DNA from: Octopus vulgaris
Taxonomy: Eukaryota
Length of the DNA: 64,000 nt
NCBI GenBank assembly: GCA_951406725.2
Contig: OX597816.1
Location: forward strand, 97,030,001-97,094,000
Direction of reading: 5' to 3'
Within the stretch, counting starts at the first letter, position 1. Each line of letters opens with the position of its first letter. The notes under the pieces are model-generated. The model did not search any database and had not been told where the DNA came from. It saw only the letters and a list, made by a program, of their open reading frames with translations. Shown here one piece after another: positions 12,636 through 64,000 of this stretch. Both the position numbers and the translations under genes were made by a program.

Positions 12636-13216
12636 ACATACAAGCACGTAATAATAACATTCTGTAAAATATTATGCAAGACGAGTTTTCCAGTTATTCG
12701 ATCACTGGAATTAAAATTCATTGAATTACTTATGAAGAAGTTGCGTATTCCATTCATGCATTTACTCTTAGTATAATCCATCCATAGAATGACTAACTTT
12801 TATTACTTGGGCTCTTGTAATATAGGTTTAGACAATCTGACGAGCTTCTACACAGTTTTCGTGTCGCAAATTTTATTTATAGCATCTTTATCAATTCGGG
12901 ACTGTGGTGGAAGACGCTCATAGGATTGAAAGCTGAATCCCCTGCTGCGAATCGAACTTTTTAGCCATAGCATGAAACTGCAAAGTTATCATCTTTTAGA
13001 AACAAGAAATTTTCCTACCTACGCTTTACCTGCCTATGATAATTATGTTAAATGCCTTCCCGAACCTGGAAACATTTCCGGCAGCGACTTGTAGTAGTAT
13101 TTAATAATTCATTCTTAAATTTAATATATATATATATATATATATATATATATATATATATATATATATATATATATATATATATCTATATATATATATA
13201 TTGGTCGAGTTAGTCT

Positions 13217-13264
13217 CTTGCTACTCTGAGTTTCACCTGTAGGTGCACAAGGGCTTCAGACAAG
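13217..13264 (-). ncRNA. Type I hammerhead ribozyme relic (A9C)
   Basis: Minus: CTTGT-CTGAAGC-cctTGTgcacctACAggt-GAAA-CTCAGAG-TA^GCAAG. Stem I CTTGT/GCAAG, stem III ACTC-A-GAGT; next to (TA)n. Confidence 0.6.
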
Positions 13265-13794
13265 TTATAACTGGAAATTTATGGGGCTTGCATACTTTTA
13301 TATAGCTTTCTAGTCATAGTGTGTTGGAAAGTATAATAAAGTGGGTGAAGTGGAAGAAAACAAGGAAGAAAGAAAGAGGAGAATGAATAGAGAATAAGAG
13401 AAATAAAAGGAAAAGAAATATAAAAGAAGTGTAGCACACACACACACACACACACACACACACACACACACGAGCACGCACACACGCACACATACGCAAG
13501 CATGCACACATACGCAAGCATGCACACATACGCATATGATAGTCTCTCGTAGTCTGCGAAAGATGTTCCTGCAATTTCTTGCTGAACAATCTGCACAAAT
13601 GAGTTACTATAGTGATCAAATGTTCGTGCTGTACTTCCTTCATCAAATCGAAGTTGCCTCAACAGGTGCATAGTCCATCACACGTCAGGCGTCGAAATGA
13701 TCGCAGAGCAACTTGAGATGAAGTGTTTTGTTGAAGGACACAATGCACAAATGGGTGCAAGGATTGAACTAAACCTCTCACCTCTCCATGCTGG

Positions 13795-14660
13795 TAGTTT
13801 ATTCCATGCTTCAATAATTCCGAGCGTGAAGAAATGTTTCCGAAAGCCATGGGTGCTGTGTTGTTTTTTTATTTTATAAGCATGTCCGCGAGTTTTTGAC
13901 ATGCGGGACTCAAAAAGGTGCCCAAGGTTGTTATTGAAAAGATGGATAATTTGGTTGGTGTCTACCAAGTCAGTCGCCAGATGTCTGAGCTTCAATGTGT
14001 CCATGCCCAGGGAAGCAAGACGTTCAGAGCATGGTAGATGCCTAACGGCGGGTTTTCGTTTTGTTGCCCGTTTCTGAACAGTTTCCAAGGGATATATATG
14101 CTGAGCAAGATAGGGGTTCCTGACTGCTGATGCAAATTCTAAGTGTAGACTACCATTGTCATTCGCAATTCTAAATAGATACCTGGATAGCGGCTGAAAA
14201 AGGTCTTACTGAGTGATGCTAGGATACCCTTAGCCTTCTTTACAATCATAGATATGTAGCTTGTCCAACGCAGATAGCTGTTTACAATAATGCCCAGATC
14301 ACGTTCCCTAGAGACTTCTTGAGATTGGTGTTGCTGAGGGAGTATGTAGAATTTGGATTTTTCCTCCCAAAACGCACTTGTCCACTGCTAGCTTGATTTG
14401 CAAGTCAAAGATCCATTGCTGCATTGTGTCCAGGTCTGATTGCAGGAAAGATCTAAAGCGCATAGGATATCTTTTTCTTTATTTCGAGGTACAACTTGAT
14501 GTCATCTGAATATTTCAACACTTAGCTCCTGAAGTTGGCACCTATATCATTAATATATGCAATAAGTAGTAGGAGTCTAAGAACGGATCCCTGTGGTACA
14601 CTAGAAGTCATCTAGGGTGAAGAATGATGTACTAGAATCGTGACTACCTCTTTTCAGCCA
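13795..14660 (-). mobile_element. CR1-like LINE RT fragment
   Basis: VPQGSVL, YSDDIKL, ETVQKRATK, TRGHAYK and FFTLGIIEAWNKLP motifs; stops and frameshifts. Confidence 0.85.
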
Positions 14661-60317: not shown

Positions 60318-62790
60318 CTATTTTACATTTCTTCTTCAACAGATATTCAGAATTTAAACGTATAACATGACGATCAAGAGAAAACATCGAAGTCACTTTC
60401 AAACTTTTCATTGTAAAAGTTAATATGTGAGCGTGCGCGTGTACGTGTACACACACATAAACACAAACACGCACATACTCACACACAAACACATTCGCAC
60501 ACACATATCTTTATATATGTCTATATGTGTATAAATATAATACTTCTTTCTCCACTTTTTATATATATGCTCCCTTTTTTCCTTTTCTATTTTTTACACA
60601 CCCCATTTTTAGTTCGTTACCCCATGTGGGTAATATCTGATGACTCTGTTGGGATACCAGGCATAAAGCAATGTGTGGTATGTTCTCAGCACATGAAACT
60701 AATAGTAGGACATAAAAACATATATTGTGTTTATTAAATAATATTTATCTCTCACCAGATGGATCACTTCTTTGTTGATTCTACCATCACGGAATAGTAC
60801 ACTAAGCGTATATGTGTGTGTTTGTGTGTGTGTTTGTGTGTGTGTATTTGTGTGTGACTATATGTATATATATATATATATATAATAAAGATATTTCCAT
60901 AAGGGTAGAAATACAGAAGAAAAGAATTTGAAATTGACTGAGATTCCTTTAGATGTTTTATTTAAAAGTTTTTAAAGACTTAAAACAGCTCCGCGTCTTT
61001 CTCTCTCAACTTTCAAAAATCAGAAAAATCTGTGAAACTGGATAATCTTCAAAAATTTTAAAATACAAAATCTAAACGAATCACAGCGCATCTTGTTGTT
61101 CTTTTTCTTCTCACTCTCTCTCTCTCTCTCTCTGTGAGCGTATGTTTGTATAAATGCACACGCACACATATATCTCAAACTAAATATACAAAAATATCCT
61201 TGTATACCATAAGTTTATATATTTATAAATATATAAGCATATGTGTGTATATGTATGTGTATGTATACATATACACAAAAAAACATATATATGCATACAT
61301 GTATATATATGTTTGTGTGTGTGTGTATATACATACACACACACACACACATATATATATATAGTTCAAATTTGCAGAAAACAAAATCTACGTGTGAATA
61401 TGTATATATATATATGAGTGTTTGCGTGTGTGTATATACACATATATTTATTCATGTATATGCAAATATATTTAACTATATCTATTGAATTAAAACATTG
61501 AATGTTATAATATATATAACAGAATCATATTGGTATATGAGCGCTAATTCAAGTTCAGTGTTTGATATCTTAAAGATAAGGCTAATTAAAATGTGTTGAA
61601 GAAGCTTCTAAATATACTGGCAACAACATAATATATAACTACAGATATTAAAATACGTATCTTAGACTTTTGATCCTAAAGTTAAATGTGTTACATGCAC
61701 AATTATCAATGGATAATGAGAACCCTAGTATAATAATACATATCTAATTTATTGTAGCGCATATTTGTCTTTGCATCATAATACAAAGAAGCGAAAGTGT
61801 TAAATGTTTATATTCTGAATATATGTTAATGAAGAAATGTAAATGTTAACATTAAAAATCTCACACTTAACAGAAGATGCTGTTAGATGCCAAAATCAAT
61901 AAACTAATCAATCACTTAATCAATCAATCAATCAATCTAACTATCTATCTACATCTCTCTCTATATACATGCATATACATACATGCATATATATACATGT
62001 GTATATATATATATATATATATATATATATATATATATATATATATGAGAACCGTAATGCCACAATATATCTACACGCACAAACGCATACATACAAATAT
62101 ATGATTAACATACTTTGAACAATAATCATCCAACCATTTAATGACTTTCCGGGATTAAATCTAACATTTTATTGAAATTTATAAACAAGACATTTCTGAA
62201 TAGATTTGCCATCAAAACAACCAACTAGAAATCGTTTGTTGTTTTTCTCATTCTTCAATGAGCAGTTCGCTTTTCCTTATATATAGTCACCTTATTTTGT
62301 ACAAAAAACTGCTAGTCCCCTCTGAACAAAATTTCCGCACAAAATGCTTTAAAATATACAGAAAACCTCATTTATCCTTTGTATATAAACACATCATACA
62401 GACACACAAATATATACTTATAGACTGAAAACTACAAATAGGTACCCAAGCATCTTAACCGGCCATACACAAACATTATTTGTCCAACAATGTGGATTGT
62501 TGGCGATTTTTTCCTCCGTCTTTCTTTTCTTTCGAACTTTTCCCTGTCTCCTTTTTCTGAAGAAAAGCTGTGCTCGAAGAGTAAAACAATCTTTCTTTCT
62601 TTCCCTCAGCGTCTGTTAATCTCTCTCTCTCTCTCTCTCTCTCTCTCTCTCTCTCTCTCTCTCTCTCTCTCTCTCTATATATATATATATATATATATAT
62701 ATATATATATATATATATATATATATATATATATATATATATATATATATATATATATATATATATAATATATATATATATATATATATA

Positions 62791-63158
62791 GCAATAATAA
62801 TTCTCTAAACGAGATATAGACAGTAACTGCTCCATAACATGCTGTCGAACAGATTTTCGAAATCAGTAAATGTATTTACGTGAAAATCTTTATATAAATA
62901 TTCTGCACAGAGAGTCGTTCGTCGAAGGGCGGTGCCTACCATACGTTGACGAGAGGCAAACACCTCGAAACCTGGGTCCGTATGTGGCTTCCGCTTCTTC
63001 GGTGGATGATCTCCCTTTGCAGGATAGAGGACGCCGTGATGGTGTCAAGCCTTTCTGGTGACGTTGATGTTCGCCTGGGGCTAAATGCAACAGTAACACC
63101 CCCACCGCCCTGCCCTGTCCCTAGCCACATTCAAATGGCTAATGTCCCTTTTGTTATA
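62791..63158 (+). mobile_element. Diverged copy of the 357-bp retrozyme-like family (50-bp inverted head plus direct body) in (TA)n
   Basis: 62791-62840 inverted; 62841-63158 aligns to the unit at 63573-63890. Confidence 0.85.
62929..62994 (+). ncRNA. Type I hammerhead ribozyme, U3.G8 variant
   Basis: GCGG-t-GCC-tac-CATACG-TTGACGA-GAGG-caaaca-CCTC-GAAA-CCTGGG-TC^CGTATG-t-GGC-tt-CCGC; predicted cleavage after 62978. Confidence 0.8.
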
Positions 63159-63190
63159 TATATATATATATATATATATATATATATATA

Positions 63191-64000
63191 GCAATAATAA
63201 ATCTCTAAACGAGATATAAACAGTAACTGCTCTATAACATAAGGGGCATCAGCCACCTGAATGTGGCTAGGGACAGGGCAGGGCGGTGGGGGTGTTACTG
63301 ATGCATTTAGCCCCAGGCGATCATCAACGTCACCAGGAGGGCTGACACCATCTCGGTGTCCTCTAGCCTGCAAAGGGAGATCATTCCCCGAAGAAGCGGA
63401 TGCTACATACGGACCAGGTTTCAAGGTATTTGCCTATTATCAACGCATGGTAAGCACCATGCATCAGTAACACCCCCACCGCCCTGCCCTGTCCCTAGCC
63501 ACATTTAGATGGCTGATGCCCCTTATGTTATAGAGCAGTTACTGTTTATATCTCGTTTAGAGATTTATTATTGCTTTCGAACGGTTTTTCTACATCAGTA
63601 AATGTGTTTACTGTGAAAATCCTTAAATATATAGCCTGTACAGAGAGTTATTCGTCGGAGAGCGGTGCTTACCATGCGTTGATAATAGGCAAATACCTTG
63701 AAACCTGGTCCGTATGTAGCATCCGCTTCTTCGGGGAATGATCTCCCGTTGCAGGCTAGAGGACACCGAGATGGTGTCAGCCCTCCTGGTGACGTTGATG
63801 ATCGCCTGGGGCTAAATGCATCAGTAACACCCCCACCGCCCTGCCCTGTCCCTAGCCACATTCAGGTGGCTGATGCCCCTTATGTTATAGAGCAGTTACC
63901 GTTTATATCTCGTTTAGAGATTTATTATTGCTTTCGAACGGTTTTTCTACATCAGTAAATGTGTTTACTGTGAAAATCCTTAAATATATAGCCTGTACAG
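63191..64000 (+). mobile_element. 357-bp retrozyme-like tandem: inverted partial copy 63191-63458, then direct units from 63459, running off the window
   Basis: GCATCAGTAACACCCCC at 63461 and 63818 (period 357); starts at (TA)n. Confidence 0.9.
63662..63726 (+). ncRNA. Type I hammerhead ribozyme, U3-A8 variant (mirror copy on minus strand ~63396-63458)
   Basis: GCGG-TGCT-tac-CATGCG-TTGATAA-t-AGG-caaata-CCT-t-GAAA-C-CTG-G-TC^CGTATG-t-AGCA-t-CCGC; predicted cleavage after 63710. Confidence 0.75.

Follow-up and report, generated by a model that had tools for sequence, protein, structure and literature searches.

Hammerhead ribozyme repeats at (TA)n tracts of the Octopus vulgaris genome as probable cis and trans substrates of Penelope-like element proteins

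Seven sequence-unrelated families of repeats bearing type I hammerhead ribozymes (HHRs) lie in the window, that is, the whole 64,000-nucleotide (64-kb) stretch of Octopus vulgaris DNA analysed here (contig OX597816.1), and the machinery of Penelope-like elements (PLEs) is most likely their mobiliser. We propose, with a probability of roughly 0.8, that the RNAs of the window are substrates of endonuclease-bearing PLE proteins and fall into two categories. The first would comprise 3' ends of autonomous-type PLEs that were copied in cis and truncated on their 5' side, with family A as the demonstrated case, G, J and K as likely members and B as a possible one. The second would consist of closed tandem HHR units without an open reading frame (ORF), retrozyme-like and copied in trans, namely C (560 nt), D (357 nt) and the older E and F. 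The framework, including PLE hammerheads, tails, inverted heads, the TA bias and the link between retrozymes and PLEs, is already published (PMC4209133, PMC7229834, PMC8557442, PMC11167929, bioRxiv 10.64898/2026.07.22.740005). Our result is sharper genomic support for an existing idea, and no part of it is a new kind of element.

The seven families (A at 35108, B at 45488, the 560-nt C, the 357-nt D, E at 15144, F at 29170 and G at 13217; Table 1) agree with the original prediction of at least six unrelated ones, as an all-against-all blastn of 13 references gave a single non-self match, of 43 nt (E 0.007). A type I core with three helices is found in the window for B, C, D and E, and only in relatives for A and G, while F has a U4C core. 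Between families, the stems differ wholly in sequence with pairing maintained. Genomes with numerous, heterogeneous HHR families are known from work on PLE hammerheads and variants (Cervera and de la Pena 2014, PMC4209133; Perreault et al. 2011, PMC3088659), as are a palindromic helix III, U3-A8, U10.1-U11.1 and U4C, and the axolotl HHR_Amex2 is described with U-U at the helix II base (Cervera and de la Pena 2020, PMC7229834; Li, Clavereau and Pollet 2026, bioRxiv 10.64898/2026.07.22.740005). Unlike in the reported variants, U10.1-U11.1, the U-U at the stem II base, recurs here in five unrelated families (A, B, C, D and G) of one 64-kb window and within D alternates with G-C (U-U in 8 and G-C in 6 of 14 distinct rows).

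A descriptor permitting U-U at the stem II base and a U3-A8 core, tuned post hoc with the families already known, fitted 21 motifs in the window, against a mean of 0.015 and a maximum of 1 in 200 block-wise dinucleotide shuffles. These intact motifs are confined to four families (B, 2; C, 15; D, 3; E, 1). Earlier scans of the window had returned one motif with a strict descriptor and three with a relaxed one (shuffle mean 0.6); the strict and one-mismatch scans overlooked B, C and young D because they required a pair at the stem II base. The genome-wide relaxed-core scan, also proposed originally, did give an excess (4967 matches vs 2718 in the reversed control), but the matches were mostly chance, with most of the hits in a sample of 30 lacking stem I. 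No hammerhead family appeared among the 150 listed of 349 Rfam matches in the window, the top ones being miRNA models on palindromes and microsatellites, and TRF overlooks the 560-nt array because its period limit is 500 nt. A core-like word at 34727 was rejected as an HHR, having an invalid stem I and no relative in the sampled loci.

Table 1. HHR-related features of the window, in order of position
Feature	Position	Strand	Remarks
G, old 3' end with HHR, adjoining (TA)n 13124-13200	13201..13340	-	motif 13217-13264 degraded
E, old family with tandem units of about 460 nt	14910..15316	-	intact HHR 15085-15144; 3' end adjoins (TA)5
F, old 342-nt tandem unit	28969..29442	-	HHR-like motif 29119-29170; U4C core; no TA flank in window
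A left arm, long end, assigned to a Hydra-type PLE 3' end	35108..35275	-	HHR damaged
A right arm, short end running into (TA)n 35402-35449	35292..35401	+	3' half of HHR only (35354-35370)
B left arm, long end	45488..45737	-	intact HHR 45664-45707
B right arm, short end running into (TA)n	45745..45908	+	intact HHR 45775-45818
J, degenerate copy of abundant minimal-HHR end	46140..46260	-	intact relatives at other loci
C inverted head, short end, garbled 3' part	48009..48477	-	intact HHR 48238-48289
C tandem array, long end into (TA)n 56127-56178	48478..56131	+	about 13.7 units of 559-561 nt
K, degenerate copy of abundant minimal-HHR end	62490..62620	+	intact relative in L153
D older insertion	62791..63158	+	51-nt inverted long end (62791-62840, minus) and direct arm whose short end runs into (TA)n
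D young insertion, inverted arm, long end	63191..63458	-	HHR 63406-63449, U3-A8 core, U-U at stem II base
D young insertion, direct 357-nt units	63459..64000	+	HHR 63673-63716; about 60 nt past window to non-TA junction

The families share a PLE-type insertion signature across the genome, where scoring covered the best 40 of each family's 900-1600 candidates, in most cases together with 1.5 kb of flank. Each tested family (A-D) has two fixed 3' end positions. In line with the predicted (TA)n association, these ends lie next to (TA)n in 37/38 cases for B, 20/22 for C, 29/42 for D and 20/39 for A, against a background of 3.8-4.6%; in the autonomous element PLE2, all 18 of 18 true termini do. Two-armed insertions combine one long and one short end in all 46 classed cases (D 14/14, C 5/5, B 16/16 and A 11/11), 6 further insertions having one unclassed end, and PLE2 follows the same rule in 5/6. 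This regularity constrains second-strand resolution in PLE integration. The arms diverge in orientation, with fixed outer 3' ends and variable inner 5' truncation, and the inverted copy, the tail and the AT-rich target hold for A, B, C, D and PLE2.

Within the window, the succession of TA tract, inverted arm and direct arm or arms is seen at all five sites for which it had been predicted. The right ends at about 35401, 45908, 56126-56131 and 63158 all pass into (TA)n, and both 357-nt insertions, at 62791 and 63191, indeed open with (TA)n followed directly by GCAATAATAA. Some details required correction. The element placed at 35163 starts at about 35108, positions 35108-35162 being its long tail; the C head does have a TA tract beside it, but one of merely 6 units, and the 3' 150 nt of the head are garbled; and the right end of the 63191 insertion is not at (TA)n. 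Next to this far end lie a 101-nt fragment of a different repeat and an old remnant of a PLE endonuclease. Reading it as a PLE-retrozyme chimera is unsupported, these neighbours being older and unrelated.

As judged from its sequence, family A represents the 3' end left by truncation of a Hydra-type PLE. Its HHRs in the window are not intact, the left arm having lost GAAA and stem I and the right arm the 5' core. In three loci (L244, L252 and L253), an endonuclease of the GIY-YIG type lies 1.9-2.9 kb upstream of A and is contiguous with it; A is, therefore, a truncated autonomous-type PLE and, with this endonuclease frame attached, is not an ORF-less tandem unit of the retrozyme kind. Read from translations, the parent endonuclease is C-terminal, with CxCX5C, CxxC and CxH and no CCHH, and one of two proteins matched Pfam GIY-YIG at E 0.0008, below the curated cut-off. 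RT motifs were found in relatives of A (L249-L251), not in the A-subfamily copies themselves, and Hydra-type frames of 520-700 aa also occur in the genome. The parent matches the Hydra clade as presented in PMC8557442 (section 11), in which a C-terminal endonuclease with a CxCX5C linker, CxxC and CxH, a canonical HHR and (TA)n insertion are combined. However, described Hydra elements are generally <3 kb, whereas in the A parent the AT-rich 3' UTR extends to about 2.5 kb, the endonuclease is preceded by a long stretch rich in Asn, HHR loop II measures about 55 nt and the tail about 90-115 nt. A hidden antisense ORF in A was rejected, as 14 aligned copies contained no long frame. A had at first appeared ORF-less in sampled loci with short flanks, and it serves as a warning that an HHR end may seem non-autonomous when its ORF sits behind a 3' UTR of at least 2 kb.

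Family B (1232 candidates, of which 40 were scored, about 99% identical) occurs without tandems in 25 loci, as monomers or two-armed palindromes of ~270 nt per arm. Its identification with the pLTR (pseudo-LTR) of PLE2 was rejected, since that pLTR differs and the ORF preceding B in L077 breaks off ahead of the endonuclease.

Families C and D appear non-LTR retrozyme-like, being tandem units with a complete type I HHR and, in the sampled loci, no attached ORF. In 30 loci each (1.5-kb flanks), they consist solely of tandem or inverted units, and nearby PLE matches are separate neighbours; the originally proposed check of PLE-ORF attachment separates them from A. Units of C, D and E close end-to-start at constant length and, therefore, leave no room for an ORF. 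A wrap-around joint in contigs of runs presumed to be RNA fits genomic tandems as well as circular RNA. C (1573 candidates, 40 scored; unit fold z -6.25) carries 14 consecutive intact HHR motifs in its array, from 48507-48558 to 55787-55838. Six substitutions are shared by non-adjacent units of this 14-mer in a mosaic pattern, four of them absent from 12 other loci, a pattern that speaks against one pass round one monomer circle. Derivation of the C head from a second subfamily was rejected, since it differs by 4 substitutions in 318 nt and a figure of 88% was due to the garbled 3' part; a minus-strand core-like word in C was also rejected as an HHR, lacking a valid cleavage triplet. For D (1599 candidates, 40 scored; unit fold z -4.68), tandems with HHR motifs also occur in other genomic loci, and the older insertion has an HHR at 62940-62984 with a U3-G8 core and G-C at the stem II base. 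Divergence arm-to-arm, unit-to-unit and between loci is 2.1, 2.0 and 4.1% in D and 0.47, 0.55 and 1.1% in C, the arms thus differing as much as the units do and half as much as separate loci; in L050/L052 and L054, locus-private variants recur in every unit and in either arm.

The older families are more eroded. E (276 candidates) has a short inverted head at 15250-15316 and one weak PLE RT match in 15 loci; F (442 candidates) had no PLE match in 12 loci. Relatives of G (305 candidates) show a C3-G8 core, U-U at the stem II base and a cttgc/gcaag stem I; a search for its parent element returned none.

No PLE ORF was found in the 64-kb window by tblastn with two PLE protein types, in agreement with the original prediction, and candidate helpers lie elsewhere in the genome. 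PLE2 is a young Neptune-type element with an 811-aa RT and GIY-YIG frame (99% identity in 150 scored of 18,326 candidates), an RVT_1 match at E 5e-7, a weak GIY-YIG match and, read from translation, a CX2-5CxxC linker and CCHH, as in Neptune/Nematis-type PLEs. Its pLTR bears an HHR, and its two ends lie 42 nt apart. The frame upstream of PLE2 gave an Atlas match of 0.81, a lead only. Many Hydra-type copies are also present, targeting (TA)n like the Neptune-type ones. C and D have no homology to the pLTRs of PLE1 and PLE2 (two Neptune-type PLEs) or to the A end, within the small part of the genome's PLE families that was sampled, and homology, therefore, names no helper.

In the mechanism that we favour, a GIY-YIG/RT protein, probably a dimer, would nick both strands of (TA)n, and reverse transcription would start at two internal sites of one RNA or source transcript, one per strand. 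Hammerhead cleavage would yield circular or multimeric RNA, on which the RT could read through the unit junction and so produce tandems. The helpers would belong to at least two clades, Neptune-type and Hydra-type. Tail lengths form two groups, 34-43 nt for PLE1, PLE2 and D and about 80-115 nt for A with its relatives, B and C, and tail length and core type together would pair the 357-nt family with Neptune-type (43 nt and U3-A8 vs 34-42 nt and U3-A8) and the 560-nt family with Hydra-type helpers (C and B tails of 80-100 nt with a C3-G8 core vs 88-115 nt). More tentatively, and with the odds somewhat against it, each two-armed insertion may derive from one RNA, circular for C and D, with a PLE dimer using both fixed starts at a helper-set spacing, and tail and core may assign D to Neptune-type and C and B to Hydra-type proteins without homology. 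If true, this would be direct footprint evidence of animal retrozymes trans-mobilised by two PLE clades in one genome. Further observations count against the main reading: the B arms, which differ by 0.8% from each other and by 0.55% from other loci, are no closer to one another; the D stems (94.9% of stem cells pairing) have no two-sided compensatory standard change; and TA adjacency is weak in E, F and G (for E, 5/38 alignment ends, 12 of 38 being tandem run-ons).

A single PLE family serving every family in trans, as originally predicted, would agree with the target, architecture and long/short rule common to all tested families, and one Neptune-type family is both very young and abundant. 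The part of that claim concerning ORF-less passengers fits the 357-nt and 560-nt families, but A is attached to its own Hydra-type endonuclease, the tails form two groups and Hydra-type frames are present too; with at least two PLE clades ending at (TA)n, one common system is unlikely. The opposite extreme, in which each family would be the 3' terminus of some autonomous PLE outside the sample and spread only in cis, draws on the ORF of A, hidden behind its long 3' UTR, and on relatives of B with long AT-rich 5' parts. It is quite improbable given the closed units of C, D and E and the hard 5' limit of about 270 nt at which young B copies stop in 25 loci.

C and D could be leftover PLE pLTRs turned into minisatellites by local DNA amplification, with no role of RNA circles in their spread, a satellite route discussed in a 2026 preprint (bioRxiv 10.64898/2026.07.22.740005). 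The mosaic variants of the C 14-mer do suggest local exchange or a multimeric source. However, tandems of 2-6 units are scattered over many loci, and each has two PLE-type ends of its own and private variants common to both arms; they count against this improbable account because a local process does not make two PLE-type ends. That the palindromes are MITEs, fold-back DNA elements or (TA)n slippage artefacts with chance HHR motifs is hardly credible: the genome is AT-rich and the loose pattern is mostly noise, yet outer 3' ends are fixed with variable inner truncation, full motifs far exceed the shuffles and the same fold recurs, on different sequences, across the seven families and in both PLE pLTRs.

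Under the preferred reading of cis and trans PLE substrates, C and D resemble the animal non-LTR retrozymes presented in the available parts of PMC7229834 and bioRxiv 10.64898/2026.07.22.740005 in being ORF-less tandems of a few hundred nt with low GC, one type I HHR per unit, strong self-pairing and PLEs in the same genome. Those sources argue the retrozyme-PLE link from co-occurrence, shared HHRs and pLTR homology, and in the vertebrate preprint 8/9 tested dimers did not cleave. Unlike retrozymes as described, C and D combine inverted heads with (TA)n targets and a pair of fixed ends (the counts of 'inverted' and 'microsatellite' in the available text of PMC7229834 are both 0), and unlike those with pLTR homology in the preprint, they have no detected pLTR homologue and are characterised here at the sequence level. 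MRC1 and other non-autonomous Chlamys PLEs, ORF-less and with pLTRs and head-to-tail multimers made via PLE machinery, as a rule share 3'-end similarity with the autonomous partner, according to PMC8557442; C and D are unlike the partners examined.

Such ORF-less hammerhead units with the full PLE signature, together with young intact candidate helpers, make the question of the mobiliser testable at mapped starts. Partial tandems, an inverted 5'-truncated copy, an often one-ended tail, AT-rich or (TA)n targets and pLTR HHRs are reported for EN+ PLE insertions (Craig et al. 2021, PMC8557442), and two internal RT start sites by Frangieh et al. 2024 (PMC11167929). In contrast to the canonical EN+ PLEs of these accounts, the marks here sit on ORF-less units, tails measure 34-140 nt vs 30-40, and a long and a short end are combined in all 46 classed insertions. 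The ends here also carry TA-rich microhomology, whereas the anole PLE protein primed at a non-homologous site (PMC11167929).

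Self-comparison of the window (GC 35%, plentiful (TA)n, from a 2.8-Gb assembly) recovered the layout of the original prediction, a TA tract followed by an inverted arm and one or more direct arms, at 5 of 5 named sites; for the element placed at 35163 the layout held and the start did not, the true one lying at about 35108. At least six unrelated hammerhead ribozyme (HHR) families had been claimed, and seven (A-G, listed in the table) are present, without mutual sequence matches. An inverted head precedes the approximately 13.7 units of family C, and the two insertions of family D begin, as predicted, at the identical base. 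The D insertion at 63191 stops about 60 nt outside the window at a non-TA junction; a 101-nt piece of a palindromic MITE-like repeat adjoins its right end. That repeat, seen at other loci of the assembly (L235-L243, L113:1062-1162), has one fixed end and flanks that are not TA.

Hammerhead repeats and other repeats in the window
Feature	Window position	Genomic candidates	Spacing of 3' stops (nt)
Family A	35108	907	~88
Family B	45488	1232	~80
Family C (560-nt unit)	48478-56131	1573	~95-100
Family D (357-nt unit)	63191 (one insertion)	1599	~43
Family E	15144	276	
Family F	29170	442	
Family G	13217	305	
Abundant TA-ended repeat, degenerate hammerhead-like motif	15850-16100 (minus), 16312-16414		
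(TA)n tract hit by differing PLE-type elements	62676-63190		
1.25-kb repeat, two inverted copies	1563-2796, 16400-17639		
Decayed pieces	38027-40097, 13678-14205, 35333-35752, 3213-3906 (minus), 58363-58791 (minus)		
tRNA-headed SINE-like repeat	46404-46830, 12321-12635, 23337-23749, 24986-25432, 7826-8143		
146-nt tandem pair	46870-47161		

For each family search, 40 candidates were scored and 12-30 loci examined. Each of A-D has two fixed 3' stops, a long and a short end, whose spacing corresponds to the tail of Penelope-like elements (PLEs). Counting an end as adjacent to (TA)n when (TA)4 lay within 8 nt beyond it, 37/38 ends of B, 20/22 of C, 29/42 of D and 20/39 of A qualified (a few overlapping C loci being counted twice). 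The background was 897 of 19,300 for positions drawn at random from the loci and 688 of 18,230 for positions of the window. This upholds the predicted (TA)n association for genomic copies of A-D; in E, F and G, which are old, adjacency is weak. The ends are TTAT- or ATA-rich, in agreement with the claimed microhomology. A long end was paired with a short one in all 46 two-armed insertions with both ends classed (A 11, B 16, C 5, D 14; binomial p 3e-14), the other 6 of the 52 having one unclassed end. The same (TA)n tract has been hit by differing PLE-type elements, often from either side, in L115, L080, L112, L064 and L250, as well as in the window.

Arms and units of one insertion resemble each other more than they resemble other loci: divergence is 2.1% arm to arm, 2.0% unit to unit and 4.1% between loci in D (13 insertions), 0.47%, 0.55% and 1.1% in C (7 insertions), and 7.8% arm to arm versus 9.9% between loci in A. 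No closer arm-to-arm likeness of this kind was seen in B. In L050/L052 and L054, private variants are common to both arms and every unit. In the window's 14-mer of C, six substitutions are common to non-adjacent units, four of them missing from 12 other loci. This mosaic, as read from the sequence, counts against simple single-pass copying and calls for a multimeric template or for subsequent unequal exchange in that array.

A strict hammerhead scan of the window returned one motif and a relaxed scan three, and hammerhead families were absent among the 150 Rfam matches listed of 349. The scans missed most motifs because, as comparison with genomic relatives showed, stem II of the families concerned has U-U at its base, and the core of D is moreover of the U3-A8 kind. 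A descriptor permitting both, drawn up after the families were seen and to be read accordingly, found 21 motifs, two in B, 15 in C, three in D and one in E, where 200 shuffles gave 0.015 on average, in line with the predicted excess over shuffled DNA. It also detected motifs of other families in the examined loci, including the terminal repeat (pLTR) of an autonomous PLE. The HHR of A and G is intact in relatives only, and F has a U4C core. The U3-A8 core (PMC4209133), the U-U and U4C variants (PMC3088659) and an axolotl retrozyme with U-U (PMC7229834) have been reported before. Extra hammerhead families occur in L200, L203, L208, L222, L002:2440-2530, L052:3274-3318 and L220; in several of them stem II again has U-U at its base.

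The original prediction of a single system, all served in trans, is unsupported. Family A looks non-coding over 2.4 kb, but beyond that, on the upstream side, an endonuclease is joined to it without a break (L244, L252, L253), and its CxCX5C, CxxC and CxH motifs are of the Hydra type in section 11 of PMC8557442. Judging from sequence, A is thus the end of a truncated PLE and was copied in cis. The Hydra-type endonuclease has 14,239 candidates, and its relatives show RT motifs and 520-700-aa frames, together with related hammerheads; their tails measure about 90-115 nt. In the Hydra-type PLEs of L249-L258, long Asn-rich stretches separate RT from endonuclease, 3' UTRs measure 0.6-2.5 kb and HHR loop II spans about 55 nt. 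The claim of ORF-less families fails for A and stands for C and D, whose units close on themselves, have a predicted folding far better than shuffled sequence and were preceded by no RT-endonuclease frame in the 30 loci examined per family (for C, 13 of these are window units). E and F resemble C and D in kind, but are old. In 25 loci, young B copies stop sharply at about 270 nt on their 5' side, and no tandem copies were found.

As predicted, no PLE frame was found inside the window; PLE coding sequence is present in L077 and L046. Its endonuclease, that of the young, autonomous PLE2, has 18,326 candidates, and the 150 scored were 99-100% identical, many within 811-aa frames. PLE2 combines RT, a CX4CxxC linker, CCHH and an overlapping upstream frame, and is of Neptune/Nematis type by the motifs of PMC8557442 rather than by a tree. 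A U3-A8 hammerhead is present in its pLTR, which shows no match to any family of the window; its ends lie 42 nt apart, at (TA)n in 18/18, with long and short mixed in 5/6 two-armed copies. The young Neptune-type PLE (L120:3283-4767 and 1022-3454 on the minus strand; also L122, L123, L125, L128) has two overlapping frames, which suggests frameshifting: a first of about 450 aa, without a Pfam match, and a second with RT and GIY-YIG. The upstream frame of PLE1 in L115 is 41% identical to that first frame.

Targets, ends, arm geometry, shared variants and helper presence can be read directly from the sequence; the mechanism that we propose is modelled on published work. For an anole PLE, PMC11167929 describes nicking and extension of both strands and two internal start sites that define the tail, and predicts a dimer. 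By extension, a PLE protein would nick (TA)n on both strands and use both start sites of a single RNA, each strand being extended from a different one. If the template were circular or multimeric, reverse transcription would run on across the boundary between units. Hammerhead cleavage and RNA circles are assumed by analogy with PMC7229834; cleavage was dispensable in vitro for the anole protein (PMC11167929) and occurred in 1/9 dimers in a preprint (bioRxiv 10.64898/2026.07.22.740005). D and PLE1/PLE2 share tails of 34-43 nt and U3-A8, and B, C and the Hydra-type PLEs share tails of 80-115 nt and C3-G8. This pairing, drawn from two clades and few families, would link D with Neptune-type and B and C with Hydra-type PLEs.

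A retrozyme-PLE link was proposed in PMC7229834 and, from co-occurrence and pLTR homology, in bioRxiv 10.64898/2026.07.22.740005; PMC8557442 describes inverted heads, tails often at a single end, a preference for (TA)n and, in Chlamys, non-autonomous elements. Titles and abstract openings of mainly open-access literature yielded no report of families A-G, nor of ORF-less hammerhead tandems bearing PLE footprints. The observation is real and the families are probably new, their kinds being already known; the contribution is a useful quantitative footprint.

Among the other repeats in the window, the decayed pieces resemble an LTR retrotransposon, LINE RT ends and a mariner-type transposase, with no Pfam match at E 0.01. 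The SINE-like repeat is abundant and contains an internal TA/TG tract. The inverted 1.25-kb copies are 93% identical and contain 140-nt repeats, and the 146-nt tandem pair (84% identity) is present in L053 too.
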